Of a DNA stretch of 40,096 nt, positions 5,228 to 25,196 are shown piece by piece; position 1 is the stretch's first letter, and every line of letters begins with the position of its first letter. The stretch is taken from the IMG/VR virus record IMGVR_UViG_3300009962_000005; one strand, written 5' to 3'. The translations under genes were made by a program, and so were the position numbers. The notes beneath the pieces were generated by a model. That model did no database searches. It saw only the letters and a program-made list of their open reading frames with translations, and had not been told where the DNA came from. The DNA is from a virus.

Positions 5228-5256
5228 ACTATACGCCCCGTATAGTTTACGTGCAA
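5228..5256 (-). promoter_or_regulatory. Promoter/operator module copy a: TTGCAC-17-TATAGT with CTATACggggcGTATAG
   Basis: The reverse complement of 5228-5256 reads ttgcacgtaaactatacggggcgtatagt. This is one of five near-identical modules. Confidence 0.7.
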
Positions 5257-5471
5257 GCCGAAACGGAGTGAACTCCATCACCAACCCTGGGTAGCTCCCA
5301 CACCGGCGTACACACCCGCAAATGATAATCCAGAGCCGCCCTAGCCGTACCCTCACTCACACGCCAAAGATACTGCTCTGACTGGCAGCGGGGGCATATG
5401 AGCGTCAGCCCCTCCCGGTTCAGGTAGGATTCCACTACGCGGGTAGGGCCACTAGCGACAACCTCGATCAT
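5247..5471 (-). CDS. Hypothetical small protein with CPRC...C motif
   Basis: 74-aa ORF in the operon, with a 4-nt overlap to the upstream gene. Confidence 0.5.
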   Translation of the reverse strand: MIEVVASGPTRVVESYLNREGLTLICPRCQSEQYLWRVSEGTARAALDYHLRVCTPVWELPRVGDGVHSVSACT

Positions 5472-5650: not shown

Positions 5651-5846
5651 TTGCTGCCACCCCCTCAGATGCTTTATCGTAGGCGGCCTCAAGCGCTAGA
5701 ATGATGCATTTTGAGTCGTGCTGCAGGGCAGCCTTGGACGGCCGGTAATTGCCCGCATCGAATGCATGCCCGGTGTCGGGGATCATGTCTAGCATGATGC
5801 GGATGTTTTCCTCTAAATCATCCAGTAGGGCGGTGAAATTACTCAT
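5643..5846 (-). CDS. Hypothetical small acidic protein
   Basis: 67-aa ORF with ATG 5846. Confidence 0.5.
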   Translation of the reverse strand: MSNFTALLDDLEENIRIMLDMIPDTGHAFDAGNYRPSKAALQHDSKCIILALEAAYDKASEGVAAND

Positions 5847-5867
5847 TGTTATCTCCCTTGTTTCTTT

Positions 5868-6617: not shown

Positions 6618-7267
6618 TGTTTCCCCTTGATTTGCGCGTAGTTTTCCGCGTCGATTTCTTCCACGGTTTCGATTATTTTTTTGAGAGCATTTTTTGCGGC
6701 GTCCACGCCCTCATTTATTCCGTCGATTACCGGTTCACTGAATGCCCATTGCGATTTTTCTTGCGCATACGATATTTCTTCATCCAGTATTTCTTTTGAT
6801 TTCTCTAATTCGATTAGAGCGTTATCCGCACTGTCTTTTAGAGATAATAGTTTTGATACGTCCACTATTGAATCGTCCTTACTGATCGGGCGTATTATCA
6901 CCATCACCCCGGGGCGGTCTTTATCCGGTTCGCCGTGGTGCAGGTGAGGCCCGTCCACGTGCGTGTAATCATCATCTTCGAGCAGCCCGGATAGTACGAT
7001 GCCGTCCACGATTGCCTTAGCCACCGGGTACAAATTCCCTGGGTCGTAGCGGCGGCCGGTGGGTTTGTGAATTATCATGTCGATTTTGGCGAAATAGTTT
7101 ATGCGTGATTTGGGGATTCCCTCACGGATTTGTTTTGCTGTTTCGTCTCGCCATGCCCGCGTGTTTTTTGCCCGCGCCCAGTGTCCGGCCCGGTTTACTT
7201 CGTTGCTGGTGAGAAATTTTTTATCACCTAGCGGGATTGTGAATACTAGCCCGGGTTTTTGCGCCAT
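6614..7267 (-). CDS. rusA: RusA-like Holliday junction resolvase with an extra ~85-aa AT-richer C-terminal extension
   Basis: The RusA pattern is present: ..RYDPGNLYPVAKAIVDGIVLSGLLEDDDYTHV.. Start taken at ATG 7267 (MAQKPGLVF). The C-terminal SKDDSIVDVSKLL...IKGKQ has no RusA counterpart. Confidence 0.7.
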   Translation of the reverse strand: MAQKPGLVFTIPLGDKKFLTSNEVNRAGHWARAKNTRAWRDETAKQIREGIPKSRINYFAKIDMIIHKPTGRRYDPGNLYPVAKAIVDGIVLSGLLEDDDYTHVDGPHLHHGEPDKDRPGVMVIIRPISKDDSIVDVSKLLSLKDSADNALIELEKSKEILDEEISYAQEKSQWAFSEPVIDGINEGVDAAKNALKKIIETVEEIDAENYAQIKGKQ

Positions 7268-8341: not shown

Positions 8342-8533
8342 CTAGTCGGCTGAGGTGATGGGGAGGAATAGTACGGCGGCGGCGAGGGTGAAGGCGAGTA
8401 GCCCGGTGTCGCTTGCGCGGAGGGCTAGGGCGCCGAATGATGCGGTGGCTGCCGCCCAGATGATGGCTACCGCGACGGCGGCTATGGCCCATCCTATGGC
8501 GATTGTGCGTAGAGCTTTGAGTGATTTTTTCAT
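8342..8533 (-). CDS. Small membrane protein (two predicted TM helices)
   Basis: MKKSLKALRTIAIGWAIAAVAVAIIWAAA...LLAFTLAAAVLFLPI. AAGGAGA lies upstream and promoter-module copy e is just upstream. Confidence 0.6.
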   Translation of the reverse strand: MKKSLKALRTIAIGWAIAAVAVAIIWAAATASFGALALRASDTGLLAFTLAAAVLFLPITSAD

Positions 8534-8575
8534 TGTGTTCTCCTTGGTTTTTGGTGGGTTGCCCCGCCAATAAAA

Positions 8576-8605
8576 ACTATACAGGGTGTATAGCTAATTG
8601 TTCGA
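8576..8605 (-). promoter_or_regulatory. Promoter/operator module copy e: (TCGAAC)-TATAGT with CTATACaccctGTATAG
   Basis: The reverse complement reads tcgaacaattagctatacaccctgtatagt. The palindrome is identical to copy c; the -35 is weaker. Confidence 0.6.
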
Positions 8606-8626
8606 GCCAGGCGGCAGTGATATGCG

Positions 8627-12076: not shown

Positions 12077-12205
12077 TTAGAAGGTAAATTCGTCGTCGCG
12101 CGCCTCGTCACAGCGGGCGCACCAGTCTATTTCGGCGCATTCGCCATAGCATTCAGTGCGTAGGCACCGGCCGCACCAGTGCGGTTGCAGGTTCGGTTCA
12201 CGCAT
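12077..12205 (-). CDS. Small Cys-rich protein (42 aa from ATG 12205)
   Basis: MREPNLQPHWCGRCLRTECYGECAEIDWCARCDEARDDEFTF. Its ATG overlaps the upstream stop by 8 nt (ATGCGTGA). Confidence 0.45.
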   Translation of the reverse strand: MREPNLQPHWCGRCLRTECYGECAEIDWCARCDEARDDEFTF

Positions 12206-12440
12206 ACTTGGCCACCAAACCGTAATTCTTTTCCATGTACCGGCGTATCTCCGCGCCCTCATAGAAGACCGAGCAGCCGCGAACGATGCCGCCTATCTCG
12301 GTGCCGCCTACCCGCACGAAATCAAGGTTTTTGCGGGCCGCCCGCCAATTGGCTAAAGTGCGGGGAGAAACACATAAAAATTCGGCTGTTTCCTTTGGTG
12401 TGTAGAGTCCTTCTAACTCAATGTTTGTTAAACTATTCAT
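12198..12440 (-). CDS. Excisionase-family / MerR-type HTH DNA-binding protein (candidate Xis or early regulator)
   Basis: LYTPKETAEFLCVSPRTLANWRAARKNLDFVRVGG...YEGAEIRRYMEKN resembles HTH_17/excisionase proteins. It is the first gene of the early operon after the non-coding gap. Confidence 0.65.
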   Translation of the reverse strand: MNSLTNIELEGLYTPKETAEFLCVSPRTLANWRAARKNLDFVRVGGTEIGGIVRGCSVFYEGAEIRRYMEKNYGLVAKYA

Positions 12441-12793: not shown

Positions 12794-13111
12794 CTATGCT
12801 GCTTTCGTCTTCTCTCGGGTGGTTACCATGTCGCTAAGCTCTAGCCCGGTTGCCCGGTGCAGTCTCGCTAGGTGCCCGATGCTCGGGCCTCGCCCTACAC
12901 CGTTGCGCCAGTTCGCTAGCGTGTTCACTGATACGCCGAGGAAGTTTGCCAAGTCTGAATTGGTGTCTATTCCCAGGTTTGCTTTAGCCATCCTGAGAAC
13001 ATCGGGGTTCAGAATCTCAATCACTGTTGTTACCTCTGATTCACTTTCGTTCTCCCGTTGCCGGGTGGCTGTGTAACCAGCATACACCAAAATTTTTGTA
13101 GAAAATGCCAA
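12794..13111 (-). CDS. XRE-family HTH protein, Cro-like (start uncertain: ATG 13111, GTG 13024 or ATG 12991)
   Basis: ..DVLRMAKANLGIDTNSDLANFLGVSVNTLANWRNGVGRGPSIGHLARLHRATGLEL.. It is divergent from the repressor-int operon and heads the early minus-strand operon. Confidence 0.7.
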   Translation of the reverse strand: MAFSTKILVYAGYTATRQRENESESEVTTVIEILNPDVLRMAKANLGIDTNSDLANFLGVSVNTLANWRNGVGRGPSIGHLARLHRATGLELSDMVTTREKTKAA

Positions 13112-13226
13112 TTTTTTAGCGATTATTCACAAAATTTTGTGAATTTCGCATGTTTGCGGGGTAAAAACGGCCAAAAAATTTTTCACAACCAGTAAAAACT
13201 TAAACAGAAGGTGTAAAGTTAATTGC
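13081..13226. promoter_or_regulatory. Divergent genetic-switch region with a perfect 20-bp palindrome ATTCACAAAATTTTGTGAAT (13125-13144) and related sites
   Basis: AT-rich intergenic region. Related imperfect site caccaaaatttttgtag (13086-13102) and half-site TTCACAA (13182-13188). TAAAGT (13214-13219) lies 7 nt before ATG 13227. Confidence 0.7.
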
Positions 13227-13577
13227 ATGAGCCTAGGAAACTACATAAAACAAAAACTTGGACTGTCCGTAACCGCCCTATCCAGGGAAACAGGGCTAGA
13301 GTACAACTCCCTCTACCGGCGCATGCGCGGCGATCAGCCCTTCACCATCGACGACATGGTGGCGATCCACCGCGCAACCGACCTTGACCTGCTCGAAATG
13401 CTCAAGGCCAACGGGTCAATCACCCCCGCCGAGGTAGCGGAACTACGGGCCACACCCGCGCCCGACCTAACCCACGCAACAGACAGTGCGCTAGGGGCCG
13501 AAGTCTTCCGCCGCCTCACCGAAAAACGCGAGGTAGACCCGTGGGAAACACTCACCGCCGCCTACGCGGCCGTATAG
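13227..13577 (+). CDS. HTH protein, candidate immunity (CI-like) repressor, co-oriented with int
   Basis: MSLGNYIKQKLGLSVTALSRETGLEYNSLYRRMRGDQPFTIDDMVAIHRATDLDL.. (HTH). It lies immediately upstream of the integrase and divergent from the cro-like gene. Confidence 0.6.
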   Translation: MSLGNYIKQKLGLSVTALSRETGLEYNSLYRRMRGDQPFTIDDMVAIHRATDLDLLEMLKANGSITPAEVAELRATPAPDLTHATDSALGAEVFRRLTEKREVDPWETLTAAYAAV

Positions 13578-13609: not shown

Positions 13610-14899
13610 ATGGCGCGCCCACCCCTGCCCATAGGATCACACGGCCAAATCACGGTGCGAAAGGCGAAAGGCGGGGCGTGGGTAGCCCGCGCCACCATGC
13701 GGGATGTCACCGGAAAGCGCCGCGACATCACCGCACAGGCACCAACTAGAGCCGCAGCACACACCAAACTACAAGCCAAAATCGCGGCAAACACCAGCGG
13801 CCCAGCTGCGCCCCAGACACTAGGCGACGCTATCGACGCCTGGCGCGACACATACGCGGGAAAATCTCACAACACCATAAAGCAGAGGGAGCAAATGGTG
13901 CGGTTGCATCTCACCGAATGGAGAGACCTGCAGCTAATCGAATGCACCGTGCCCACGCTAGACCGCATCATAACGGCGGCGGCCAAGCCTAGACGGGTAA
14001 CCAGCATCAACGGGAAAAGAATTACTATCGGCGGCGTATGGGCCGCTAAAACAGTCCGAACAGTTCTGAACCTAATCATGCAAGAGGCCGTGCGATCAGG
14101 AACTATACCGTATAACGCGGCGGCCGCTACCCGTGTGCCGCACACCCCACGGAAAAAGGCGCGCGCCCTAGCCCCGGCCGAGGTGAGGGAGATTATCGAC
14201 ATTGTAGATGCGGCCTCAGCACCCAACATTACCGGCTCCGGCCGGGCGCATTTTTGGTTCCCCGACATGGTGCGCGTGCTAGCTGGCACGGGTCTGCGCA
14301 TCGGTGAATGTGTCGCCCTCAAATGGGCAGACTATGACCGGGCGCAGCGCACCCTGCACGTGCACGCCACCGCTATTATGGTGGGCGGCACGCCGGTTTG
14401 GCAGGACAAGACTAAGACGGGTGCCGAGCGGGTAGTGCATTTGCCGTCATGGTGTGCCGATGCCCTGGATGCGCGGGCGCGCCGGTTCAAGGCCAAGGCG
14501 GGGGATTATATTTTTATGAACCGGGACGGGGGCATGATTAGTCTAGGCACGCCTACTAAGCGGCTGCATGAGATGCTGCCCGGCCGGTTCGCATGGGTTA
14601 CCCCGCACACCTTCCGCAGGACTGTTGCCACGACTCTTGAGCGTGAGCTAGGGATAGAGGCGGCGCAGGCGCAGCTCGGGCACGCCTCTGCATCCACGAC
14701 GCAAATTTATGTGGCCCGCCGGACTATGGCTATCTATGGTGGGGCGCTTGAAAAATTGGGTGGTAAATTGGGAGGTCACGAGAAACTCACGGAAAACGAA
14801 ATGCATTTCAGTGAATTGTCGGAGGGGCAAAATGGGCCGGTTGAGCGCTTGATAGCTGAGCTTGAGGGGGTTACCGTGAATCCCAGTGAATCCCAGTGA
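13610..14899 (+). CDS. int: Tyrosine integrase
   Basis: The C-terminal catalytic region is present: ..LAGTGLRIGECVAL.. (Arg), HTFRRTVAT (HxxR), LGHASASTTQIYV (His...Tyr). N-terminal SAM-like/arm-binding region. Confidence 0.92.
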   Translation: MARPPLPIGSHGQITVRKAKGGAWVARATMRDVTGKRRDITAQAPTRAAAHTKLQAKIAANTSGPAAPQTLGDAIDAWRDTYAGKSHNTIKQREQMVRLHLTEWRDLQLIECTVPTLDRIITAAAKPRRVTSINGKRITIGGVWAAKTVRTVLNLIMQEAVRSGTIPYNAAAATRVPHTPRKKARALAPAEVREIIDIVDAASAPNITGSGRAHFWFPDMVRVLAGTGLRIGECVALKWADYDRAQRTLHVHATAIMVGGTPVWQDKTKTGAERVVHLPSWCADALDARARRFKAKAGDYIFMNRDGGMISLGTPTKRLHEMLPGRFAWVTPHTFRRTVATTLERELGIEAAQAQLGHASASTTQIYVARRTMAIYGGALEKLGGKLGGHEKLTENEMHFSELSEGQNGPVERLIAELEGVTVNPSESQ

Positions 14900-14902
14900 A
14901 TA
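14876..14902. repeat. Tandem direct repeat GTGAATCCCA x2.7 spanning the int stop codon
   Basis: gtgaatccca gtgaatccca gtgaata. It is followed by the inverted repeat tagatat-N7-atatcta (14910-14930). Confidence 0.8.
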
Positions 14903-14932
14903 GGCTCATTAGATATGTAGGAAATATCTATA

Positions 14933-14960
14933 TAAACCCCGGAAACCCGGGGTTTTTCTT
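14933..14960 (+). terminator. Intrinsic terminator after int (aaaccccgg-aaac-ccggggttt followed by TTCTTT)
   Basis: Read directly; correct orientation for int. Confidence 0.7.
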
Positions 14961-15023
14961 TATGCTCGGGTGCCTAGTCACGGTTTACTCACGTTTTTGC
15001 TTCGTTTTTCTCCCGGTTTTGGC

Positions 15024-15052
15024 TTGAACCAATTCTATACGGTACGTATAGT
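15024..15052 (+). promoter_or_regulatory. Promoter/operator module copy b: TTGAAC-17-TATAGT with CTATACggtacGTATAG
   Basis: ttgaaccaattctatacggtacgtatagt, read directly. Confidence 0.7.
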
Positions 15053-15110
15053 ATTGAGTGAGGGGGGAACCCCCGAGAGCCAAGACACAAAAACGATGGA
15101 GACAACCAGA

Positions 15111-15446
15111 ATGAAACCTGCAGCCGCATACATGATCGTGACCGAGCTATGGAGCGATGGTGTGAACCGCACCGCCCCGGGTGAAGGGAAATTCGCGGGC
15201 TACCGCACAATGGTGTACACACCTAAGGCCGTAGGGCACACCACGCGGCTAGGCAAAATCATTTCACGCTCATACGGGCGATGGGATGCTACCTTTTCCG
15301 CTACTGATGCGGTGGCGGCGCACGGTGAGAACCTGGCCGCCCTGGTTGGTGTACGTGGCCGCTATACGGTTGATGCTCTTGATGCTGAGGTGGCGCGTGA
15401 GATTACCGGGGATGCGGTGGGCGGGTACACCATCAGCCCCAAGTGA
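15111..15446 (+). CDS. Hypothetical protein (island gene 1)
   Basis: MKPAAAYMIVTELWSDGVNRT... GGAGA lies 8 nt upstream of ATG 15111 (alternative ATG 15096). The track ORF start 14970 would translate the promoter. Confidence 0.55.
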   Translation: MKPAAAYMIVTELWSDGVNRTAPGEGKFAGYRTMVYTPKAVGHTTRLGKIISRSYGRWDATFSATDAVAAHGENLAALVGVRGRYTVDALDAEVAREITGDAVGGYTISPK

Positions 15447-15466
15447 TTAGTTTCACTCGTAATAAC

Positions 15467-15495
15467 TTGTATACGGACTATACACCCTGTATAGT
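15467..15495 (+). promoter_or_regulatory. Promoter/operator module copy c: TTGTAT-17-TATAGT with CTATACaccctGTATAG
   Basis: ttgtatacggactatacaccctgtatagt, read directly. Confidence 0.7.
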
Positions 15496-15549
15496 ATTAG
15501 ATGTAGGGGAACCCACCCCACAGGAAACAACAACCTAAGGAGCCTTGAA

Positions 15550-16164
15550 ATGGCACGCAATAACAACGCCACAGAAGCACAGCGCCGGTACATCGAATCC
15601 CTCGCTAAAAACCTCACCGATGAGCAGTTTAGCCAGGCAATCCGCAAAACCGGGTCAGCCTCAGATAAAGCTCATGATCACCGGGCAACCCGTAACCAGC
15701 GGCTGAGCCACCTCACCAAGGCATACGCCTCTACCCTGATTGAACTGCTCAAGGATGAGGAATATGTAAATTCTCTCATCGCTACCGATGAGCATGAAGA
15801 CGAAGAGAGCCAGCAAATGCAGGACTTCGCCGCCCGCTTCGAAGAAGGTGTGAGCTATGAAGACGCAAAAAATACCCTCAGGGAATACCTTAAAGCTGGG
15901 GCTAAAGCAATGATCGAGTGGGAACTAGAGGGGCAAACCTATATTGCCAAACTTTTAGTTTCATGGCCCGAAGACCTGGGGGATTTCGACAGTCTCGGTT
16001 TTGTCTTCGGAAACCAAGACCTCGACGATATGTCCGCATTCGATGACGGGAAAAACGGTGACCGTGCGGACGAATCAGAACCGTATGAGCGGTGCGAGGA
16101 TGAGCTGTTAGACCGTTTCGGCCTCACTCGCGAAGACATTGTACTTATTCAGATACCTTGGTAG
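15550..16164 (+). CDS. Highly acidic hypothetical protein (island gene 2, 204 aa), AT-richer than its surroundings
   Basis: AAGGAG RBS. The C-terminal two-thirds are rich in Asp/Glu (..DEHEDEESQQMQDF..DLGDFDSLGFVFGNQDLDDMSAFDDGKNGDRADESEPYERCEDELLDRF..). Confidence 0.7.
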   Translation: MARNNNATEAQRRYIESLAKNLTDEQFSQAIRKTGSASDKAHDHRATRNQRLSHLTKAYASTLIELLKDEEYVNSLIATDEHEDEESQQMQDFAARFEEGVSYEDAKNTLREYLKAGAKAMIEWELEGQTYIAKLLVSWPEDLGDFDSLGFVFGNQDLDDMSAFDDGKNGDRADESEPYERCEDELLDRFGLTREDIVLIQIPW

Positions 16165-16187
16165 ATATAAAAACCAGCTCAACCCAA

Positions 16188-16210
16188 CGCCCCGCCCACC
16201 ACGGGCGGGG
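16188..16210. terminator. 9-bp GC hairpin (gccccgccc/gggcggggc) after island gene 2
   Basis: Read directly. There is no clear U-tract, so it may only attenuate. Confidence 0.35.
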
Positions 16211-16233
16211 CACCCAGAAAAAGGAACAGAACA

Positions 16234-16623
16234 ATGGAAAAACAGTACACCGCCCGCGTAATCGAGAACGGGAAAACCACCGCAGAACGCACCGGATCGC
16301 TACGGGAACTAGTGCACTGGGCATACAGCGACCGTATCGGTGAGTACTCCCGCCACATTGAGGAAGGTGAACTACTCGACACCCCCGGCGGTGCCTATGA
16401 ATGGTTTATCGACCTACCCGAAGTACAACAACATGTACGTGAAAAACTGAGCAGCCACGAGCTAGAAACCTGGTGGGACGACGACGAAGGAACATATGTA
16501 GTGCTGCACACCGAGCCGATGCCGCTAACTCCTGAGGGGGTAGCCGCCTACATTGCCCGCAGTGAAGAAAGCGTGAGCCATCACGGCAACCAATGGTGGG
16601 TAGAAGTCAAACCAGCCGAATAG
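16234..16623 (+). CDS. Acidic hypothetical protein (island gene 3, 129 aa)
   Basis: MEKQYTARVIENGKTTAERTGSLRELVHWAY...ETWWDDDEGTYVVLHTEP.. AAAGGAA-type RBS. Confidence 0.65.
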   Translation: MEKQYTARVIENGKTTAERTGSLRELVHWAYSDRIGEYSRHIEEGELLDTPGGAYEWFIDLPEVQQHVREKLSSHELETWWDDDEGTYVVLHTEPMPLTPEGVAAYIARSEESVSHHGNQWWVEVKPAE

Positions 16624-16729
16624 AAAAAGGAGGGGCGCCGCCCTTAAATCTCGCGCGGCGGCACCCCTACCCGCATACCAAGCGGGAAACAACAACTTAT
16701 GAAGATAAGTATAGAGAGGATAAAGAGGA

Positions 16730-16951
16730 ATGACAAAGAAACCTAGCTACCTCGGCCCCAGTGACGTTGCGCGGCGCCTCGGCGTAACCCGCGACGCCGT
16801 ATACAAACTATTGGCCGTGCACCCTTTGGAAAACGACGCATGGGGAGCGAACGGCACCCCCCTATGGCTCCCCGAGACAATCGACGCCTGGCGCGCGAAA
16901 CACCCCAAGCCACGCGGCCCGCACAAGAAAAAGAGCACCGAGAATGCGTAG
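16730..16951 (+). CDS. Excisionase/AlpA-like HTH DNA-binding protein (island gene 4)
   Basis: YLGPSDVARRLGVTRDAVYKLLAV...PLWLPETIDAWRAKH resembles HTH_17 proteins. AAGAGGA RBS. Confidence 0.65.
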   Translation: MTKKPSYLGPSDVARRLGVTRDAVYKLLAVHPLENDAWGANGTPLWLPETIDAWRAKHPKPRGPHKKKSTENA

Positions 16952-17756
16952 CGCATCATACGGCGCCCGTGACATGCCCGCCATCAAGCAGGAGCTAATC
17001 GGGCACCTTGAGACGGCGATCAGCACATGCACACAAGGGGTCTGGCACATAGCCAAATACCGGACACACCGTGCAGGCATAGAAGACAGCGCCCTATGGT
17101 GGGTACACGCGGGCATGACCGAAACGGTCATAGACACGGCCCCCGAGTTCCTGCTGCACTACATGCCCCACATGGAGCACATGCCGTCTGACGCCGGGGT
17201 AATCGTATGGGACGGCGGGACAGACCAGGTAGCCCCGTGGGGTGACGCGCCCGACAGCATCAGCGACGCCTCGCCGTTCATGGTATCCACCCCCGCGACC
17301 ATCCAAATTGTGGGTGCCGCATGGGTGCGTGAAGACCTCTACATGCTGCTAGGCACCTCACGCGGGCGCATATGGCGCGAAGTGGAAGGCAACACGGGCC
17401 TGTACGCCCGGCTATCCCGCCTACTAGTCACAACCTGGACGGTAGCGCGTGAACCCTCAATCGGCGATATACGCCCGTACCGGCCGGGCACCCAAGGGGA
17501 CACAACAACCAGCGCGGCGCGTGATACACGGGCTATCAACGCAGTGTACGTGCGTGAACGCCCCCACGGAGGCGGGGCGGGAGCGTCACGGCGCGGCATG
17601 GGCCACCGCGTAGAAGTGCGCGGGTACTGGCGCATGCAACACTACGGGCCGGGCAACCAGCGCATACGCCCAGTGTACGTTGCGGCGCACATGCGCGGCC
17701 CGGAAGGCGCACCGGTAGAAGAACCCCGCCCATCGGTACACATCGTAAAAGAATAA
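16944..17756 (+). CDS. Hypothetical 270-aa protein coupled to the HTH gene (island gene 5)
   Basis: Its start overlaps the stop of gene 4 by 8 nt (ATGCGTAG). It has a His-rich patch LLHYMPHMEHMP and a basic C-terminus HRVEVRGYWRMQHYGPGNQRIRPVYVAAHMRG. No family recognised. Confidence 0.6.
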   Translation: MRSASYGARDMPAIKQELIGHLETAISTCTQGVWHIAKYRTHRAGIEDSALWWVHAGMTETVIDTAPEFLLHYMPHMEHMPSDAGVIVWDGGTDQVAPWGDAPDSISDASPFMVSTPATIQIVGAAWVREDLYMLLGTSRGRIWREVEGNTGLYARLSRLLVTTWTVAREPSIGDIRPYRPGTQGDTTTSAARDTRAINAVYVRERPHGGGAGASRRGMGHRVEVRGYWRMQHYGPGNQRIRPVYVAAHMRGPEGAPVEEPRPSVHIVKE

Positions 17757-17801
17757 TACCCAGCCCCATAGGGCACAGGAACAACAGCAAAGGAAACAAG
17801 A

Positions 17802-18074
17802 ATGTGGGAATCACCCATTAGGCAGCTACCCATAAAGCTAGAGAAAGAAGAAGTCGGTGAAGACACTTACATGTACGGTATGGTCGATAAATCGCAGCTC
17901 ACAGCGCAAGAGCTGCGTGAACACGCTGCATACGTTGAAGGCATGAATCAGGACGCCATCAGCCTATACGTGAACATCACCGGGCTATCCGATGAAGAAG
18001 CCACGCAGAAATACCTTGAAGCGCTAACCCAGGTGAGGGCCGAGCGATCAGACCGCGAAGGGTGGGGCGAATGA
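17802..18074 (+). CDS. Hypothetical acidic protein (island gene 6)
   Basis: 90-aa ORF; A/C-rich leader with AAAGGAAA upstream. Confidence 0.5.
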   Translation: MWESPIRQLPIKLEKEEVGEDTYMYGMVDKSQLTAQELREHAAYVEGMNQDAISLYVNITGLSDEEATQKYLEALTQVRAERSDREGWGE

Positions 18075-18202
18075 GAACGCCCATTGCGTACACCCCCGCG
18101 CACAGCATCACGCCCCTAATCGCGGCGCTACCCGCCCCAGAAACACTACCCGCCCAGACGGATAGCATGACCGAGTGGGTGTTCACTCACTACACGGCAT
18201 AA
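18071..18202 (+). CDS. Possible 43-aa ORF coupled to gene 6 (ATGA overlap)
   Basis: My translation reads MRTPIAYTPAHSITPLIAALPAPETLPAQTDSMTEWVFTHYTA. It ends just before the convergent terminator. Confidence 0.3.
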   Translation: MRTPIAYTPAHSITPLIAALPAPETLPAQTDSMTEWVFTHYTA

Positions 18203-18211
18203 AAAGAGAGC

Positions 18212-18251
18212 GGCCCCGCCCACCCCCACAAAACAGGGGACGGGCGGGGCC
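18212..18251. terminator. Convergent (bidirectional) terminator hairpin ggccccgccc/gggcggggcc
   Basis: 10-bp GC stem between the end of the plus-strand island and the end of the minus-strand holin gene. Confidence 0.6.
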
Positions 18252-18267
18252 ACAATCACACTACCGG

Positions 18268-19451: not shown

Positions 19452-19504
19452 AGGCCCCACCTCCTTTTGTGTGATAGTTCACTTGGTTTTATAGGTGTCT
19501 TGGC

Positions 19505-19533
19505 TTGTATCCAAACTATACAGGGCGTATAGT
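19505..19533 (+). promoter_or_regulatory. Promoter/operator module copy d: TTGTAT-17-TATAGT with CTATACagggcGTATAG
   Basis: ttgtatccaaactatacagggcgtatagt, read directly. Confidence 0.7.
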
Positions 19534-19564
19534 ATTAGATATAGGGAACGAAAGGAAAACCAAA

Positions 19565-19870
19565 ATGGAAATCACCAACCGCCAAGGCACCTACTACGAA
19601 GAAACCGAAATCATGAACATCTTCGAAGCCCACGAAAACGGCCAACTAATCGGCGAAATGTACCTAGACATCAACACCGGACAAATCATGCAAATAGAGG
19701 TAAACGAAGACCGACGCGGCGAAGGAATCGCCCGCGCAATCTACGAATACGCATGCAGCATCACCGACGTATACCATGCACCCGATGAACACTGCACCCG
19801 CGAAGGACTAGCATTCAAAAACGCGGTAGGCGGCGAAGAAATCGACCCCGAAACCGCATACCAGCCCTAA
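19565..19870 (+). CDS. Minimal GNAT-like acetyltransferase (YjdJ-type, 101 aa)
   Basis: From ATG 19565: MEITNRQGTYYEE..GQLIGEMYLDINTGQIMQIEVNEDRRGEGIARAIYEYA.. This fits the beta4-alpha3 R-x-x-G-x-G/A acetyl-CoA motif. The track start 19505 would translate the promoter. Confidence 0.55.
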   Translation: MEITNRQGTYYEETEIMNIFEAHENGQLIGEMYLDINTGQIMQIEVNEDRRGEGIARAIYEYACSITDVYHAPDEHCTREGLAFKNAVGGEEIDPETAYQP

Positions 19871-20308: not shown

Positions 20309-20455
20309 TCACTGCTGCCCATCCTTGGCAGGCTCAGGCTCCACATCACTATGCACGACGTGGTAACCGCGATCAGCAGCAGTATCAGACACGGGCGGAG
20401 CCGTATTACCTGGCTTAGCTTCCACGAGCCAGAAAGGCCCCTCATATTTACTCAT
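20309..20455 (-). CDS. Possible 48-aa ORF ([21 protein letters not shown]...)
   Basis: My translation. Its ATG overlaps the fibre stop as TAATG. It is not in the ORF track (<60 aa). Confidence 0.35.
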   Translation of the reverse strand: MSKYEGPFWLVEAKPGNTAPPVSDTAADRGYHVVHSDVEPEPAKDGQQ

Positions 20456-22926
20456 TATTTCTCCTCAAAAAATCCGACAATGTTCAGGATGTAGCGCCCT
20501 GGGGTGCTTATCCTGTCAGTCTGTACCTGACGGCTACCTTTTTCTATCCAAATGCCGCCGCCGCCTGGTGTTACTGACTGCATCTCAACCAGAGATGATG
20601 CCACCGGCCCCGTGTCAGGGATGGAGAACAGGGATCCGCTCGGAATTTTCCCGGCCTGTATTGTGAAATCCAAATGCACTATCCCTAGCCCCGTATTTGG
20701 GTCAAACTCTAGGAAATGACGCAATAGTGCATTATTGCCATTGCCGTTCACGTTTGTCGTGTCCCTTGCCTCCCACGTCAGACCGTACCGCTTACGAGGC
20801 TTCATCACAGCCCCGCCACCGCCGCCGCCTTGCGGGCGTGCTTCCAGGGCCTCTACCCGGCGGGCAAGCGCATCAGCCCTAGAAACAAGAGAAGATAAAT
20901 CAGTAGAAGGCAAGGTTACCGTACCCCCATCAGGTGAGAGCGTAAGCTCACTACCAGCGATAGAAAGCTTCTGCGGCACCCCTACCCCGTCCGCGCCCTT
21001 CGGCCCAGGGTCACCTTTCGGCCCCTGCAACCCAGCACCAGCCTTACGGGTAGTGAAAAACACCGTATCCACCTGGATAAAGACGTTATCACCCTGCGGG
21101 GATCGCCACCGCACCGGCCCAGTCTCAGACCCGGCCGGGCCTGCAACATCCTTAGCTGCACACCCGGTGATCGTGAGGCCCCTAAACCAGGTTTCAACAT
21201 AGAAAGCCCAGCGGGCGCCGGTGCCGCGCCCCCCAACCTTCTGCGAAATGCAGCCGGTAATAATAGTGCCGTCAGCCCCGCCGTTCGCAATATAGAAATC
21301 GGCGGCGTCACCCTCACGAGCAGACCCGTGAACCGTGTCACGGTAAGAGGAAGATTCGGCGCGGCAATTCGTGAGCTGATTCTGCCCCCAATAAACAAGG
21401 AACCCATGCCCACCGTTCTCCTGCGCCAAACAGCCCGTGAAAATGCATTTAGTTCCCTTGATGAACCATCCCGAGCCGTCCTTCTGCGCCGCCCGGTTCT
21501 CACCCTGCGGCGCGCCAGCAGTAATATCAGTGCCATCAGCCGAAGCCACAGGCAGGGCGTATATCTGCTGCCACGAAGCGGCGCGGTGCGTAAACCAGAC
21601 GCGGCAATGAACAAACGTGCACTGAGACGTATACACCTCAACACCGGCGTAACCACCCTGTGACTGATTCGCACCGCCGACATTCAGCCCGAAGAACTGG
21701 TTATCGGCGCCGCCGTTCCCGCCCGCAACCTTCGCCACCAGCTCGGGGTGCCCATCAGGTTTACCCACAACAAGCCCGGCCTGCAGCGTGTTGCGTATCT
21801 TGAGGTTCCACACGTCCATTGCCTGGTCGTCGCGGCCAAGGATCGCCGCGCCCGTCTCCATATCCCAGACCTTGACGTTATTCATGGTCGGTGCGGCGTC
21901 CGGCTCAGCAGGGGAATCCCCAAGGTCGGTGTTTAGTAGCACGCCGCAGAGGTTAGGTATGGCCGCCTGGTGGTTACGGCCTGTCCGGTGGGCGCGAATC
22001 CATACGCTAGACACACCGAAATGAATCAGGTCTGGGTCTAGGGCTCGCTCATTCCAGGTGCCGGTATGGAAAACCCCGGTCTTCTCAGTGATAGGCGTAC
22101 CGTCTGTTGCTAGGATTTGGGTGCCGTCACCGTCACCAATAACCTGCACAAACCCCTTGAGCTTGATAAACGGGTATGATACTAAATATTTACCGGCGGG
22201 GATGCGTACAGCCCCGCCACCAGCAGCATACACAGCATCAACCGCCGCCTGTATCGCCGCCGTAGCATCAGCCTTACCCGTAGGGTCTGCACCATAAGGG
22301 GCGTCAATCACACTCACACTGTAACCAGACTTAGCGGGCGCCGCCTGCTTCGGCGCCGCCTCAAGAGCATCAAGGCGCCGCAGAATCTTTGAATCATCAA
22401 ACGCCCCGCCATCACGGCCCGGCGCACCCGGGGCACCAGGCGGGCCGGGAGGCCCCGGGTCTCCCTGCGGCCCAGGCAAGCCACGCTCACCCTGCACACC
22501 CGGCGGCCCCGCCTCACCACGCGGCCCACGCGCAGACCAACCAGACGGCGAACCCGGATCAGGTACCGGAGCCTGCTCAGCAAGATTCAGTACCGCCCCA
22601 GCCGTAGGGTGGATAAAACCGCAGGGGTACGGGGCCGGGCGGCCCTCACCATCACGCAAATGCGTAGTAACCTTGTACGCGAACTGCTCCGGCGACACAC
22701 CAGGAGACGGGGCGACAAGCCGCACACCAGCGGTGGTTGCGTCAGGCGAATCATAAAGCACGCCGCCCACAACGTACCCGGTGCGGGCCGCCTGCGTAAA
22801 AACAGAATCGCTACTGTATGCGTGCGCGGTTGGTGTGAACTCCACACGCCCAGACACAGGAACCGGGGCGCCACCCCGCTCCTGCATCGTCAAAAAATTA
22901 GCTGTCACCGTACAGTACTCAGCCAT
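20455..22926 (-). CDS. Tail fibre/tailspike: collagen-like repeats, pectate-lyase-type beta-helix (putative depolymerase), second collagen stretch, C-terminal globular domain
   Basis: Start taken at ATG 22926 ([11 protein letters not shown]; AGGAGA RBS). G-X-Y run [40 protein letters not shown] (22408-22527). [46 protein letters not shown] is typical of pectate_lyase_3 N-termini. Second G-X-Y run at 20980-21039. Confidence 0.8.
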
Positions 22927-22934
22927 ACATTCTC

Positions 22935-25196
22935 CTAATCTATCTGAAGGTAAGTGCGCACCGTAAGTTCGGTGCGATCCTCCCCCGGGCGGTGCTCCAC
23001 ACCCAGGACAAGGCAATAAACGCGGGTGCTAATGCCCGGTACCTCCCACCGGTAGACATCGCCCACACGGTAACCCGGGTCAAAAATCACGTTGATAGAG
23101 TCCGAATACACGGCCTTGGAATCCGATAGCCACGCGGCCACATCCTTAGCAAGCTCAAGCCCGCGTTCGCGGCTGCCCGCCCAAATACCGGCGTCTATCT
23201 CCAGCTCTGGTGCCTCACGCAGCGGCCCGAGAACAACGGCGTCACCATCATCTTTAGCTTTCGCCTTAGCGCCGCCGCGTATGATCGGCATTTTTTCGCC
23301 CCACATGTCTTCATAGGTGCCTGGCATGGTGCGGTTATTCACGGGGAACTGCATTGTGGATCGGGAGGATTCTCCCCCGTTCCCGAACACTGCTTTGTTG
23401 TCAATCGTGAGCTTCCACCGCCACCGGCCCAAACCTTCAAGTTTTGGTGCGGCAACATAACCCGTGTAACCGTTCTGTCCGATGGCGAAGTAGCAGGAGC
23501 CGTAATAGATTTTCTCTATCTCACGTTTCCACCCGTTCCCGTGCTGGGATATGGGTGTGTTGAAGAAATTATGCAGGTTCCACATAATGTCGTCGTCCAG
23601 CTCGAACCAGTCTTCGTTCTCGTCCGGGCCGATAAACTCTTCAACAGTCTCATTGCCTAGGATGGACTGCCCGGTGCCCTGCCAGAGTGTGGCGCGGTGA
23701 ATCTTCCCGATGTCGCCCATGTTGGAAATCCATGTGATTTTGCTTTTCACCCGCACCGCAGACCCGGAGCGTAGAATGTCCTGCCGTAGCGTGTAGTCCA
23801 CCACATCATCGGCGGAGATAACGCCCTTCTCAGTGGCTTCACGTAGCATTGTTCCGTGTTTGAAATGGAACTCGCCCGCCGCATCAAGCCACATTGCGCA
23901 GTGAATCAGTTCACCCAGTTCTTCAAGGAACCCTGAGGCTTTGCGGCCACGCACAGACGGCACCCAATAAGGATTATTCAGATAGTCGGGGATGCGCACA
24001 TGCGCCTGCTTCCTACCCGATAGTGGCAGCGGCTCCATAGCCACCAACACATCGGATATTTCACACCCTAGCTCGGCGATAATCTCACAATTACCAACCT
24101 CACTATTCGGCCCCCACCACCTTTCATGTACGCCACTAGGCCCGGGCGTACCCTCAACCCCTAGCCGCGTCTCCCAGCGCCCGTTCACATGCATCAGGAA
24201 CTCCACGACGCCATCTTTCGGCACCAGAAAATCCCCATACTGCGGATTCTGCCCGGGGTGCACAGACAGCCGCTTATTCCCCTCAAGGGTGATAGCGACC
24301 TTCTTACCGCCCACCGTCAGCTTGAGCGTGAATTTACCGGTGTGCCCGGCACCCACACGGAACCTAACCATGACCGGCTGCGTCCCCCGCAGGTTCCGGT
24401 TCTCCGCCAAATTCTCATACACGCCCCAGCCCTTGAACAGGTAGCATTCGCCGCTGTCGTGGTACACGAAGGTGGGGAAGAAGTCGTATGTCTCCTCAGT
24501 AGGCCCCGCTTTCACGCACGCACCCTTATACCGCTCCCATGCCGTCCACATCGTGCCCTGCAGGGGTGCGTGCATCACCACCCGCTTATCGACACCAAGA
24601 GGAACCTTAGACGCCGGGGACACCGCGAACCCGCACTGATCCAGCACATCCCACACCACGTAATTAATCGAGCAGCCGGGGGTGAACTTTTTAAAATCGC
24701 TGTTCTTACGGCCGGGCATGTGCCGCAGCAGCGGCAGAACATCCACACCCTTACCGAACTTATCCCAATCATCCACAATATGGGTGACAAGCTGGTTACC
24801 GTCCTGAACCTCATTAAAATCCACACGGCCCGTGAAAACCCGCACCCACTTATTAGGGCCGGGTATATCCGACGGGGAAAGAGACATGTCAATTTCGATG
24901 CGCTCACCGATTTTCGGGACACGCAGCCCACCAGAAAACCCCGTCCAAAGGTTCGGTGTCGCATCGGTCATCTGCCATGTAATAGTTCCCGTAGACTGAT
25001 TGAACCCCGAGGTGATAGCCAGGCGGCCGGGCAGGTCACCCGACATCGCGGAAGAAATCTCCACCTGGTGCATACCTTCATCGGAGCCGCCGACATAGAT
25101 GCGGGCGTAGATGATGCGCACACCCTTTTGCCGCACATACGACTTACTGGCTTGCATCCCCCAGATTTGGGTAGGCCCCGGATTTTCAGCACCCAT
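22935..25196 (-). CDS. Large tail-tip / minor tail protein (Tal-like position)
   Basis: 753 aa, between Dit and the fibre. Its start overlaps the Dit stop (TAATG). Function is assigned by synteny. Confidence 0.65.
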   Translation of the reverse strand: MGAENPGPTQIWGMQASKSYVRQKGVRIIYARIYVGGSDEGMHQVEISSAMSGDLPGRLAITSGFNQSTGTITWQMTDATPNLWTGFSGGLRVPKIGERIEIDMSLSPSDIPGPNKWVRVFTGRVDFNEVQDGNQLVTHIVDDWDKFGKGVDVLPLLRHMPGRKNSDFKKFTPGCSINYVVWDVLDQCGFAVSPASKVPLGVDKRVVMHAPLQGTMWTAWERYKGACVKAGPTEETYDFFPTFVYHDSGECYLFKGWGVYENLAENRNLRGTQPVMVRFRVGAGHTGKFTLKLTVGGKKVAITLEGNKRLSVHPGQNPQYGDFLVPKDGVVEFLMHVNGRWETRLGVEGTPGPSGVHERWWGPNSEVGNCEIIAELGCEISDVLVAMEPLPLSGRKQAHVRIPDYLNNPYWVPSVRGRKASGFLEELGELIHCAMWLDAAGEFHFKHGTMLREATEKGVISADDVVDYTLRQDILRSGSAVRVKSKITWISNMGDIGKIHRATLWQGTGQSILGNETVEEFIGPDENEDWFELDDDIMWNLHNFFNTPISQHGNGWKREIEKIYYGSCYFAIGQNGYTGYVAAPKLEGLGRWRWKLTIDNKAVFGNGGESSRSTMQFPVNNRTMPGTYEDMWGEKMPIIRGGAKAKAKDDGDAVVLGPLREAPELEIDAGIWAGSRERGLELAKDVAAWLSDSKAVYSDSINVIFDPGYRVGDVYRWEVPGISTRVYCLVLGVEHRPGEDRTELTVRTYLQID

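Follow-up and report, generated by a model that had tools for sequence, protein, structure and literature searches.

A mosaic gene island between the integrase and lysis genes of a probable actinobacterial siphophage as candidate counter-defence cargo

Described accessory loci of mobile elements

In lambdoid and other temperate phages, units of promoter, gene and terminator known as morons are set between the backbone genes, and the place beside int and attP is the classic site of lysogenic-conversion cargo. A different organization is found in acr-aca operons, where an anti-CRISPR gene is paired with that of an HTH protein, which represses the acr promoter by binding its inverted repeats. The leading regions of plasmids and the early regions of phages harbour anti-defence arrays with ArdA/ArdC, orphan methyltransferases and Ocr-like acidic proteins. 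For AcrVA2, both the biology and the distribution on mobile elements, in most cases without Cas12a, have been described; its homologue on E. coli plasmids, FinQ, inhibits the transfer of a rival plasmid (Marino et al., bioRxiv 10.1101/2022.11.29.518452). Here, a gene block in the window (the whole 40,096-nt stretch analysed), which derives from a temperate siphophage probably infecting an oral actinobacterium, Rothia or a relative, is compared with these systems (Table 1).

Table 1. Features of the block and of related modules in the window. pN/pS values are from the comparison of 18 IMG/VR relatives; energies are in kcal/mol, with the shuffle mean in parentheses.
Feature	Position	Strand	Description
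Candidate attP core	14909-14929	.	Inverted repeat TAGATAT-GTAGGAA-ATATCTA directly 3' of the int stop codon, proposed from sequence
Intrinsic terminator, CI-int transcript	14934-14955	+	9-bp stem, then T-run; -15.5 (-4.2)
Promoter module P1	15023-15065	+	-35 TTGAAC, 17-nt spacer, -10 TATAGT; palindrome CTATACG-GTA-CGTATAG at 15035-15051, then GGGGGG/CCCCC leader hairpin; conserved in relatives
gpA	15111-15446	+	111 aa, pI 9.0; no family match; pN/pS 0.40
Promoter module P2	15466-15508	+	-35 TTGTAT, -10 TATAGT; palindrome ACTATAC-N5-GTATAGT at 15477-15495; left border of variable slot 1
gpB	15550-16164	+	204 aa, pI 4.45, net charge -22; slot-1 cargo; pN/pS 0.13
GC hairpin 3' of gpB	16189-16211	+	CCCCGCCC...GGGCGGGG, no U-tract; -23.0 (-6.7); right border of slot-1 cassette
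gpC	16234-16623	+	129 aa, pI 4.7; backbone gene; pN/pS 0.19
GC hairpin 3' of gpC	16629-16671	+	-25.4 (-13.2)
gpD	16730-16951	+	73 aa, basic, MerR/Xis-type winged HTH; pN/pS 0.07
gpE	16944-17756	+	270 aa; looks like a divergent AcrVA2/FinQ-like protein; pN/pS 0.21
Variable slot 2	17757-17801	.	Empty here; gene of a 150-aa Dam-type N6-adenine methyltransferase in 12 relatives
gpF	17802-18074	+	90 aa, pI 4.5; no family match; pN/pS 0.27
gpG	18071-18202	+	43 aa; overlaps gpF stop; conserved in 17 relatives; pN/pS 0.28
Convergent GC hairpin, gpG/holin gap	18212-18251	.	16-nt arms; plus strand -38.0 (-13.5), minus strand -43.6 (-20.7)
P3 + gpH	19504-19870	+	Palindrome 19516-19532; gpH at 19565-19870, set against the direction of the tail/lysis genes
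P4 + acidic-protein gene	4951-5262	-	Palindrome 5229-5245; 67-aa acidic protein 5154-4951; terminator hairpin at ~4933-4903, -28.6
P5 + 63-aa protein gene	8342-8612	-	Palindrome 8577-8593; protein 8533-8342

Layout and mosaic structure of the block

Directly downstream of a tyrosine integrase gene (13610-14899; Pfam Phage_integrase, 73 bits), seven plus-strand ORFs (15111-18202) converge on the holin and endolysin genes. All seven are present where the initial annotation had placed them, and the last one, gpG, which had been listed as doubtful, is real: like every ORF of the block, it is under purifying selection (pN/pS 0.07-0.40 overall). The seven are kept in GenBank phage D_HF5_3, which is 93% identical and is annotated with the same seven CDS, and in ~28 contigs of related oral phages; gpA is found in all relatives with coverage at that position and gpF is missing in three. 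The block had been described as running opposite to the early and late genes, next to int. Its position is as described, but the CI-like gene (13227-13577) and int are likewise plus-strand genes, which moves the true start of this stretch to 13227; gpH is a further plus-strand gene past the lysis genes. The genes for the replication initiator, SSB, RecT/exonuclease, RusA and Ant are located outside the block. In the candidate attP core, the spacer variant CCGGAAAAG is limited to three relatives with an 84%-identity Int variant; an integrated prophage copy that would confirm the core was searched for and not found.

A comparable layout is seen in Corynebacterium phage phi16 (ORF32-ORF25), where one or more regulators and int are followed by plus-strand unknown genes that converge on holin and lysin, and where a gpE homologue, ORF29 (25% identity, E 3e-17), lies in the int-to-lysis block. 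In contrast to the locus studied here, a second tyrosine recombinase (ORF28) lies directly 3' of ORF29, and all other genes of the two blocks are unrelated.

Among the relatives, the island is a mosaic in which a conserved backbone of gpA, gpC, gpD, gpE and gpG surrounds two swap slots; the cassette order is P1-gpA, P2-swappable cargo-hairpin, gpC-hairpin, gpD-gpE, slot 2, gpF-gpG and convergent hairpin. Slot 1 (3' of P2) contains either gpB or the gene of another protein, of 65 aa (acidic), 80 aa or 210 aa, with P2 standing ahead of any of these cargos, whereas slot 2 is occupied in 12/18 relatives by the methyltransferase gene (PF05869, 42.7 bits vs a cut-off of 28.1). The AT-richer stretch that had been noted by eye at 15550-16160 is borne out: the GC content is 51.2% in gpB, 52.4% in gpF, 55.1% in gpC, 61.7% in gpD and 63.6% in gpE, compared with 59.4% in the window. 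Searches of Pfam, PHROGs, NCBIfam and PADLOC matched no block product to a structural, replication, lysis or other housekeeping phage family, and recognisable families are absent for gpA, gpB, gpC, gpF and gpG. The accessory character proposed earlier is thus upheld by the lack of such matches, by cassettes that are present or absent among relatives, by their own promoters and hairpins and by the patchy composition.

The N-terminus of gpB is a helical domain with a weak DUF3072-like match, followed by a conserved C-terminal domain (residues ~93-204); no structural neighbours were found for its AF2 model (pLDDT 70). gpC is the most divergent backbone gene (76-95% amino-acid identity among relatives). 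In 75-92 kb elements, which are not necessarily plasmids, genes for a gpB homologue, a paralogue of the gpB C-terminal domain and a 42%-identical gpC homologue lie side by side, within an array of genes on one strand that includes ArdC. In another oral phage, the gpB C-terminal domain is encoded as stand-alone copies close to the start of the early (replication) operon. The ArdC-containing array, the small acidic proteins of the island and the orphan Dam of its relatives recall anti-defence arrays; unlike in these, none of the island proteins could be matched to a named anti-restriction family (ArdA, ArdB, ArdC, Ocr or others).

Both promoter/operator copies reported for the block (P1 and P2) are real. 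Their palindrome, CTATAC-N(1-9)-GTATAG, occurs five times in the window vs 0 expected from 100 shuffles. Since the five copies are spread across the genome, three of them preceding genes outside the island (P3 to P5), the module is not island-specific. Judged from their sequence, P1 and P2 are part of a set of five near-identical predicted sigma-A-type promoters with the -10 box inside the palindrome (CTATAC-N5-GTATAG), all of which are predicted to drive small accessory genes. The CI/cro operator sequence CACAAAATTTTGTG is absent from the island promoters, the leader GAAACAACAACCTAAGGAGCCTTGAAATGGCACGCA is common to P2 and P4, and the P4-driven 67-aa protein is a paralogue of the 65-aa slot-1 cargo. 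gpH (101 aa) has a weak GNAT-like match; the P5-driven protein has two hydrophobic stretches, judged transmembrane by eye. The convergent hairpin reported at the end of the block likewise exists, with energies far below those of shuffles on both strands and a U-tract solely on the minus-strand (holin) side. As in morons, a separate promoter precedes each of four genes: gpB (P2 to hairpin), that of the 67-aa acidic protein (P4 to terminator), gpH and that of the 63-aa protein; most of these units close with a hairpin, differ from the backbone in GC content and, in close relatives, are either retained or substituted. In contrast to morons, which are independent, the five cassettes are headed by nearly the same promoter, whose -10 box lies under a palindrome, and in two of them the leader is identical as well; they would form a co-regulated set.

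gpE, gpD and the resemblance to AcrVA2

The gpE family (phrog_15934, 1e-20) is large and actinobacterial and resides on mobile elements (672 clusters at 50% identity); some members adjoin FtsK/SpoIIIE transfer genes or sit on an M. avium plasmid, and many contexts have no recombinase nearby. For gpE itself, neither a Pfam model nor a PDB sequence match was found, and Pfam, PHROGs, NCBIfam and PADLOC yielded no nuclease, recombinase or DNA-binding signature. When its AF2 model (pLDDT 86.8, pTM 0.83) was searched with Foldseek, AcrVA2 (7ci2_A) was the sole PDB match at E <0.1 (E 7.8e-4, probability 0.98, TM 0.39, 329 aligned columns), with an E-value >250-fold better than the next; the superposition has an rmsd of 11.6 Å. 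Nine phage proteins in BFVD also match the model (E 9e-6 to 7e-4). At the profile level, hhalign of the gpE family with 13 AcrVA2 orthologues gave a score of 29.2 (P 0.0029, probability 10.7%), compared with 13.3 for the reversed alignment, 11.0-18.8 for 25 block shuffles and 10-12 for unrelated real profiles; HMM-to-sequence scores reached 12 bits at most. The low-stringency profile alignment is colinear over the full length, with five conserved landmarks in the same order (gpE family/AcrVA2 family): LWWV/GAW79R, LPxW/LPEW, G..W/G138FW, TWLLxxQPxxA/LLYICSxxPEI and RGHWRxQxxGP...WIxP/RRGHWHGYWxGP...WLxP, the last of which corresponds to the C-terminal RGHW...GP...W-x-P block. The C-terminal motif of gpE reads HRVEVRGYWRMQHYGPG...RPVYVAAHMRGPEG.

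By this weak but colinear profile match and the match of its model, gpE looks like a remote member of the AcrVA2/FinQ superfamily, with which it also shares its approximate size (~300 aa) and its occurrence on mobile elements. An AcrVA2 orthologue recognised at the sequence level, that of Lactobacillus phage JCL1032, has endolysin on one side and attP-int on the other, the same niche as that of gpE. The differences are considerable: the similarity is confined to the profile level (P 0.003), and no sequence relationship is seen in the N-terminal, target-binding part. Of the HxR residues needed for AcrVA2 activity, H286 and R288, neither is kept in gpE (V223 and V225), and H291 aligns with Y228, at a position that is H in 87% of the gpE family. 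Moreover, the gpE family is actinobacterial and hardly represented in the accessible part of the published list of orthologues, where one entry is from Actinomycetota.

The 3' end of gpD overlaps the start of gpE by 8 nt (ATGCGTAG), so the two genes are predicted to be translationally coupled. Of the earlier description of gpD as an excisionase-like HTH protein, the fold class is retained (phrog_597, 9e-11; phrog_66, 2e-4; HTH_17, 15.9 bits, under the Pfam cut-off; TIGR01764 'excise', weak), but the excisionase role is uncertain because the early operon encodes a better HTH_17 candidate, an 80-aa protein (12198-12440, 26.3 bits). An HTH gene that overlaps an AcrVA2-like gene is reminiscent of acr-aca operons, all the more as a MerR/HTH_17 gene adjoins the gpE homologue on the M. 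avium plasmid and inverted repeats overlie strong predicted promoters in the same island. Unlike in these operons, the HTH gene lies upstream instead of downstream and is of the MerR/Xis type, no promoter, palindrome-bearing or other, was recognised directly upstream of gpD-gpE, and regulator binding is putative.

Counter-defence and alternative readings

Because its largest gene, gpE, resembles AcrVA2/FinQ, counter-defence cargo is the most likely reading of the block: a moron-type island whose genes likely serve in conflicts with host defences or rival mobile elements (probability roughly 0.5). Of the conversion, defence or anti-defence cargo that the initial annotation had envisaged, it is the anti-defence part to which gpE, the Dam genes of relatives and the ArdC-containing elements with gpB and gpC homologues lean, whereas PADLOC matched no block product to a known defence system. 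A previously undescribed system, for which this block had been named the likeliest place, is not what the island represents; its cassettes are independent of one another and of a known sort. By analogy with AcrVA2, gpE would bind a specific protein of the host or a rival element, perhaps while it is still nascent, and reduce the level of its mRNA; Cas12a is not indicated as the target by any result. gpD may be the Aca-like regulator of the gpD-gpE pair or a recombination directionality factor. Candidates for inhibiting host defence proteins are the acidic gpB, gpC and gpF as well as the other slot-1 cargos; for gpA, gpB, gpC, gpF and gpG, the anti-defence assignment is a candidate one based on acidity, cassette behaviour and neighbourhood. 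The Dam cassette of relatives would shield DNA from restriction. One dimeric regulator could switch all five cassettes jointly via the common palindrome, for example in a burst of expression upon entry and subsequent shut-off. The left P1 half-site is mutated to CTATGC in three relatives, which counts against this best explanation.

The likeness to AcrVA2 may be a chance resemblance between alpha/beta proteins, gpE belonging to an unrelated actinobacterial family and the island being a set of orphan genes. The TM-score and rmsd, the hhalign probability, the HMM-to-sequence scores and the missing HxR motif are in keeping with this, and the BFVD neighbours of gpE are uncharacterised proteins rather than established AcrVA2 orthologues. 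It is nevertheless rather unlikely in view of a single PDB match well separated from the next, a profile score above every control, colinear landmarks and the mobile-element niche common to both families, down to the position in temperate phages. In another reading, the island would serve lysogenic conversion or defence: expressed from the prophage, it would alter host physiology or guard the lysogen by superinfection exclusion or abortive infection, with gpE acting in a FinQ-like manner to shut down an incoming element instead of host defence. The position beside int and candidate attP, promoters of its own that lack the CI/cro operator, the putative superinfection-exclusion gene in the equivalent block of phi16, the action of FinQ on rival plasmids and the P5-driven small protein with two putative membrane segments, a common exclusion type, would all suit such a role. 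We consider it unlikely: PADLOC gave no matches, the Dam methyltransferase and the acidic proteins are more in line with counter-defence, the position of the palindrome, over the -10 box, implies repressible rather than constitutive promoters, and the stand-alone copies of the gpB C-terminal domain belong to an early lytic operon in another phage.

Even less probable is an ordinary integration/excision and early-regulation module, with gpD as excisionase, gpE as an accessory factor of recombination or DNA metabolism and the small genes as dispensable fillers. The better Xis candidate in the early operon, the lack of nuclease, recombinase or DNA-binding signatures in gpE and the many family contexts without a nearby recombinase argue against it, and cassette swapping and the methyltransferase would be left unexplained. 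In its favour are the weak Xis-type matches of gpD, its distance of 1.8 kb from int, the presence of FtsK-type transfer genes in elements that carry gpE-family members, and the tyrosine recombinase (ORF28, Phage_integrase, 82 bits) that the phi16 homologue adjoins. Within the accessible part of the AcrVA2 source, one Bacillota orthologue has a C-terminus that runs on into a recombinase-like part.

Gene content and mosaic organization of the island

The DNA corresponds approximately to a complete temperate siphophage genome. In agreement with the initial annotation, the early and late gene sets are found on the minus strand, the early genes encoding a replication initiator, SSB, RecT/exonuclease, RusA, Ant and a ParB-methyltransferase; the plus strand carries genes for a CI-like HTH protein and a tyrosine integrase, the island (gpA-gpG) and gpH, which lies further downstream (Table). 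The seven ORFs of the island, described earlier as six or seven genes, are real: they are annotated in the related phage Caudovirus D_HF5_3 (OR148987, human saliva, 40,752 bp, circular; 93% identity across the region of interest), their order is kept in relatives, and they are under purifying selection (pN/pS 0.07-0.40; 0.28 for the 43-aa gpG). Both promoter/operator modules and the terminal hairpin, which is very stable (-38 and -43.6 kcal/mol), were recovered, and gpB is indeed AT-richer (51.2% versus 59.4% GC); GC is also low in gpF (52.4%) and gpC (55.1%) and high in gpD and gpE (62-64%). The guess of accessory cargo was right in kind, whereas the suspicion of a previously undescribed system was not borne out: the island combines known kinds of element in a new variant form and is no new class of system. 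The evidence fits best with a counter-defence island of the moron type, in which a divergent AcrVA2/FinQ-like gpE, paired with the HTH protein gpD, would form the anchor, and exchangeable cassettes for acidic proteins or a Dam methyltransferase would be placed behind a shared repressible promoter.

Coordinates of the island and of other features discussed
Feature	Position	Strand	Description
ParB-methyltransferase	1372-2862	-	496 aa; ParB-like N-terminal domain fused to DNA methyltransferase (phrog_723 + phrog_498)
P4 unit	4951-5262	-	precedes gene of 67-aa acidic protein
Leader element	~5183-5165	-	GAAACAACAAC, 67-aa gene
P5 unit	8342-8612	-	precedes gene of 63-aa protein
HTH_17 protein	12198-12440	-	80 aa, early in lytic operon
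CI/cro intergenic region	13085-13190		three related A/T palindromes
A/T palindrome	13128-13141		CACAAAATTTTGTG
CI-like HTH	13227-13577	+	
Tyrosine integrase (int)	13610-14899	+	
Repeats at int 3' end	14876-14935		GTGAATCCCA direct repeats, then inverted repeat
Candidate attP core	14909-14929		predicted
P1	15023-15065		precedes gpA
gpA	15111-15446	+	
P2	15466-15508		precedes gpB
Leader element	15523-15542		GAAACAACAAC, gpB
gpB	15550-16164	+	slot-1 cargo
GC hairpin	16189-16211		right border of slot 1
gpC	16234-16623	+	
Leader element	16685-16704		GAAACAACAAC, gpD
gpD	16730-16951	+	
gpE	16944-17756	+	
gpF	17802-18074	+	
gpG	18071-18202	+	
Terminal hairpin	18212-18251		
P3 unit	19504-19870	+	precedes gpH
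gpH	19565-19870	+	
Tail fibre	20455-23016	-	853 aa

The close relatives comprise 18 IMG/VR contigs and 10 metagenome contigs, and those with a readable origin (HMP, saliva samples) come from human oral samples. gpA, gpC, gpD, gpE and gpG are found in every relative that covers their position; the variability of the island amounts to two swap slots and one optional gene, gpF being absent from three relatives. Slot 1 extends from P2 to gpC, with the conserved P2 promoter and leader as its left border and a GC hairpin as its right one, and it accommodates different cargo sets: (i) gpB (204 aa); (ii) an acidic protein of 65 aa and, behind it, a basic one of 80 aa; (iii) the 80-aa protein alone; (iv) gpB followed by the 80-aa protein; or (v) a protein of 210 aa with an N-terminus similar to that of gpB. 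Slot 2, between gpE and gpF, is occupied in 12 of 18 relatives, and also in D_HF5_3, by the gene of a Dam-type N6-adenine methyltransferase of 150 aa (PF05869, 42.7 bits); in the window this slot is empty, with 45 nt between the two genes, and the orphan phage Dam methyltransferase (PF05869) is absent from the island. Owing to the ParB-methyltransferase fusion, the phage nevertheless owns a methyltransferase. Like a moron, the gpB cassette has its own predicted promoter (P2 consensus), its own hairpin (-23 kcal/mol) and a deviant GC content (51% versus 59%), and among relatives gpB is swapped for three other cargos at identical borders. Such swap slots behind a fixed promoter yield a limited set of small acidic proteins that could be screened for inhibition of actinobacterial defence systems.

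Scans of all island proteins against Pfam, PHROGs, NCBIfam and PADLOC gave nothing significant except the PHROG matches of gpD and gpE, leaving gpA, gpF and gpG without a family lead in these collections; the defence-component search that had been proposed (PADLOC-DB) yielded partial matches at best (E 0.004-0.03). PDB sequence searches with gpA, gpB, gpC, gpE, gpF and the gpE family profile found no match. The N-terminal domain of gpB is helical and has a weak DUF3072-like match; conservation is high in the C-terminal domain (residues 93-204), which bears the invariant signature FxDGKxGDxA...P..R.E.ELL.RF and also occurs as stand-alone proteins of 118-139 aa. The AF2 model of gpB is mediocre (pLDDT 70, pTM 0.43), and the suggested Foldseek search with it found no structural neighbour, the best match, to Hsp70 NBD fragments, being rejected as noise (E >= 0.07). 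No plasmid match was obtained for gpB, and among 50,697 phage genomes tblastn with gpB and gpC matched D_HF5_3 alone. In metagenomic elements of 75-92 kb with 49% GC (L041-L045), a gpB homologue (44-66% identity), a C-domain paralogue and a gpC homologue (42%) lie side by side within a long same-strand array that also carries ArdC (ArdcN + Peptidase_M78); a stand-alone gpB C-domain is located near the head of the early operon of another oral phage. By guilt by association, this neighbourhood and the early-operon position point to an early role of gpB and gpC in counter-defence or host takeover. The arrays of L041-L045 also encode a 480-aa protein with a Cse2-like domain (PF09485, 29.8 bits); they may represent leading regions in conjugative elements from oral bacteria.

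gpE and its probable relationship to AcrVA2

To our knowledge, the anti-CRISPR AcrVA2 is so far the sole bacterial protein to recognise a polypeptide while it is being made and to eliminate the corresponding mRNA. FinQ, encoded on E. coli plasmids, is an AcrVA2 homologue that lowers F-plasmid transfer-gene mRNA, and approximately 1,800 AcrVA2 orthologues reside on mobile elements, mostly in bacteria without Cas12a (bioRxiv 10.1101/2022.11.29.518452). gpE itself matches only phrog_15934, a PHROGs family without known function, and no Pfam, NCBIfam, PADLOC or PDB sequence; profile searches with its family were likewise negative in Pfam and the PDB. According to an exhaustive HMMER scan, the family comprises at least 672 clusters at 50% identity, mostly of 260-340 aa, with the C-terminal consensus HRWxVRGHWRxQxxGPxRxxRRPxWIAPHxKGPEGAPL. 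Its carriers are this phage lineage, Corynebacterium phage phi16, contigs with FtsK/SpoIIIE transfer genes and Mycobacterium plasmids, i.e., mobile elements and accessory regions, as in the AcrVA2/FinQ superfamily.

An AlphaFold (AF2) model of gpE built from 52 family members is confident (pLDDT 86.8, pTM 0.83), and the Foldseek comparison with the PDB, also proposed at the outset, returned 7ci2_A, AcrVA2 in complex with a Cas12a peptide (E 7.8e-4, probability 0.98, 329 columns), as the only match below E 0.1, the next one having E 0.2. The TM-score of this pair is below 0.5 (0.39 query-normalised, 0.34 target-normalised; rmsd 11.6 Å), which may be due to domain orientation. Nine uncharacterised phage proteins in the viral structure library BFVD match the model as well (E 9e-6 to 7e-4). 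For comparison at the sequence level, AcrVA2 and its orthologues were taken from the supplement of Marino et al. (bioRxiv 10.1101/2022.11.29.518452) and from phage genomes. hhalign of the gpE family against 13 AcrVA2 orthologues scored 29.2 (P 0.0029, probability 10.7%), as compared to 13.3 for the reversed AcrVA2 alignment, 11.0-18.8 for 25 block shuffles and 10.4 and 12.1 for two unrelated real profile pairs; hmmsearch gave at most 12 bits. The relaxed alignment is colinear end to end, with the conserved landmarks of both families in the same order, and the two sets have a C-terminal block in common, R-G-H-W-x...G-P...[KR]-x-W-[ILQ]-x-P-x-x-V (VRGHWRxQxxGPxRxxRRPxWIAPHxKGP in the gpE family, RRAHWHGYWxGPxxGxxxxFxxKWLxPIxVN in the AcrVA2 set). 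The HxR motif (H286, R288) and H291 are required for target-mRNA down-regulation by AcrVA2 (Marino et al., bioRxiv 10.1101/2022.11.29.518452). In gpE the HxR motif is not conserved, H286 aligning with V223 (W in the family) and R288 with V225; the H291 position is H in 87% of the gpE family and Y228 in gpE and its close relatives, and an H221-R222 pair is located two residues upstream of the HxR-aligned position. We place the probability that gpE is a remote homologue of AcrVA2 at roughly 0.7.

Should the link to AcrVA2 prove false, what is left is a moron region of the ordinary kind, composed of orphan genes. Homologues near FtsK-type genes raised the idea of a replication initiator, which was rejected: the phage has a phrog_270 initiator, and gpE is without a Rep signature. 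A bridge between gpE and AcrVA2 via Dickeya phages was also considered, as a protein of phage JA13 is among the BFVD neighbours of gpE and a different phage, AD1, has a sequence-level AcrVA2 orthologue; it was dropped since the two proteins could not be equated. The genome positions correspond as well: a sequence-level AcrVA2 orthologue of Lactobacillus phage JCL1032 shares the niche of gpE, being flanked by the endolysin gene and attP-int, and the gpE homologue of Corynebacterium phage phi16 is found at the same int-to-lysis position. In phi16, a second tyrosine recombinase (ORF28, 5765-6652; Phage_integrase, 82 bits) overlaps the end of the gpE homologue, and a Bacillota AcrVA2 orthologue in the table of Marino et al. 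extends into a recombinase-like C-terminus; this adjacency may reflect a functional link or merely a shared location.

Actinomycetota are represented by a single entry in the accessible part of the orthologue table of Marino et al., and on the basis of that part the gpE family appears to form a branch that has not been linked to AcrVA2. A far more specific proposal, which we regard as rather doubtful, is that gpE represents an apparently unlinked AcrVA2/FinQ clade, with HxR replaced and a MerR-type HTH partner, that acts as a polypeptide-directed silencer of a host or rival-element gene other than Cas12a, and that P1-P5 form a phage-wide counter-defence regulon under one regulator. The proposed clade spans phages, plasmids and integrative elements of Actinobacteria, including abundant human oral phages and Mycobacterium plasmids; if the proposal holds, this well-populated branch would offer tractable new cases for finding the targets and activity residues of AcrVA2 homologues.

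Promoter module, putative operators and gpD

The palindrome CTATAC-N(1-9)-GTATAG occurs five times in the window, as compared to none in 100 shuffles. All five copies overlap a TATAGT -10 box; 17 nt upstream, four of them have a TTGxxx -35 hexamer, and P5 has TCGAAC. The two island copies noticed initially exist, but the module is distributed genome-wide and not specific to the island. Behind P4, inside the early operon, a gene with its own strong terminator encodes the 67-aa acidic protein, to which the 65-aa cargo found in slot 1 of relatives is paralogous; the leader and first three codons are identical at P2 and P4. P5 precedes a gene directly upstream of the dUTPase gene; the product of this P5 gene contains two hydrophobic stretches, taken by eye for membrane segments, and is possibly an exclusion protein or membrane-acting moron. 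The P3 cargo, gpH, is an acidic protein of 101 aa with weak matches to GNAT acetyltransferases (19-20 bits); its gene is inserted on the opposite strand, flanked by the genes for the minor tail protein and the endolysin. Since the anti-CRISPR AcrVA5 is a GNAT protein, gpH may merit testing.

Occurrences of the module in IMG/VR are confined to this phage lineage and always lie ahead of one of the P1-P5 cargos, which led us to reject a general host promoter. P3 is unlikely to include a divergent promoter that serves the lysis genes, the -35 matching 2/6 by eye. The module palindrome was also rejected as a CI operator, the CI/cro intergenic region carrying different repeats; the A/T palindromes there are probably the immunity operators. 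As the CI/cro palindrome, e.g., CACAAAATTTTGTG, differs from that of the module, a regulator other than CI is implied. The leader element GAAACAACAAC stands ahead of three genes, gpB, gpD and that of the 67-aa protein, which suggests that the gpD-gpE unit arose from this cassette type and lost its promoter part.

gpD is a basic protein of 73 aa with a MerR/Xis-type HTH. The end of its gene, stop codon included, shares 8 nt with the start of gpE, so that both are presumably translated as a pair and co-transcribed. The excisionase-like HTH seen earlier is there, yet below trusted scores (HTH_17, 15.9 bits versus a cut-off of 27; TIGR01764, 15.8 versus 28.8; PHROG matches phrog_597, 9e-11, and phrog_66, 2e-4), and while gpD could be an excisionase, the HTH_17 protein early in the lytic operon is, judged by its sequence, the better candidate (D_HF5_3 orthologue 26.3 bits versus the Pfam cut-off of 27). 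Since this better HTH_17 gene lies elsewhere and, on an M. avium plasmid, the gpE-family gene has a MerR/HTH_17 gene next to it, we lean towards gpD as a dedicated regulator or partner of gpE. In acr-aca operons, an HTH gene is co-transcribed with the inhibitor gene, and their own promoter carries inverted-repeat operators; for gpD-gpE, the overlap implies co-transcription, and the sequence directly ahead of gpD showed neither a palindrome nor a consensus promoter.

Integration site and host

The direct repeats at the int 3' end mark the candidate attP region and are followed by the inverted repeat TAGATAT-N7-ATATCTA, the spacer of which co-varies with an Int variant of 84% identity in three contigs (L004, L011, L036). 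A prophage copy was sought in 185,579 species genomes, once with gpE and once with Int, and none was found; the sequence upstream of P1 matched 10 metagenome contigs, all with the int-island junction intact. tRNA genes and Rfam matches are absent from the window.

The host of D_HF5_3 was predicted as Actinomycetota by the authors of that record (PMC10537320). The closest cultured relative of the endolysin is that of Rothia phage Spartoi (47% identity), followed by Arthrobacter phages; together with the oral origin of the relatives, this likeness makes Rothia or another member of the Micrococcaceae the probable host. The tail fibre contains collagen-like G-x-y repeats, its D_HF5_3 orthologue is annotated as a pectate-lyase superfamily protein, and it is probably a depolymerase-type receptor-binding protein.
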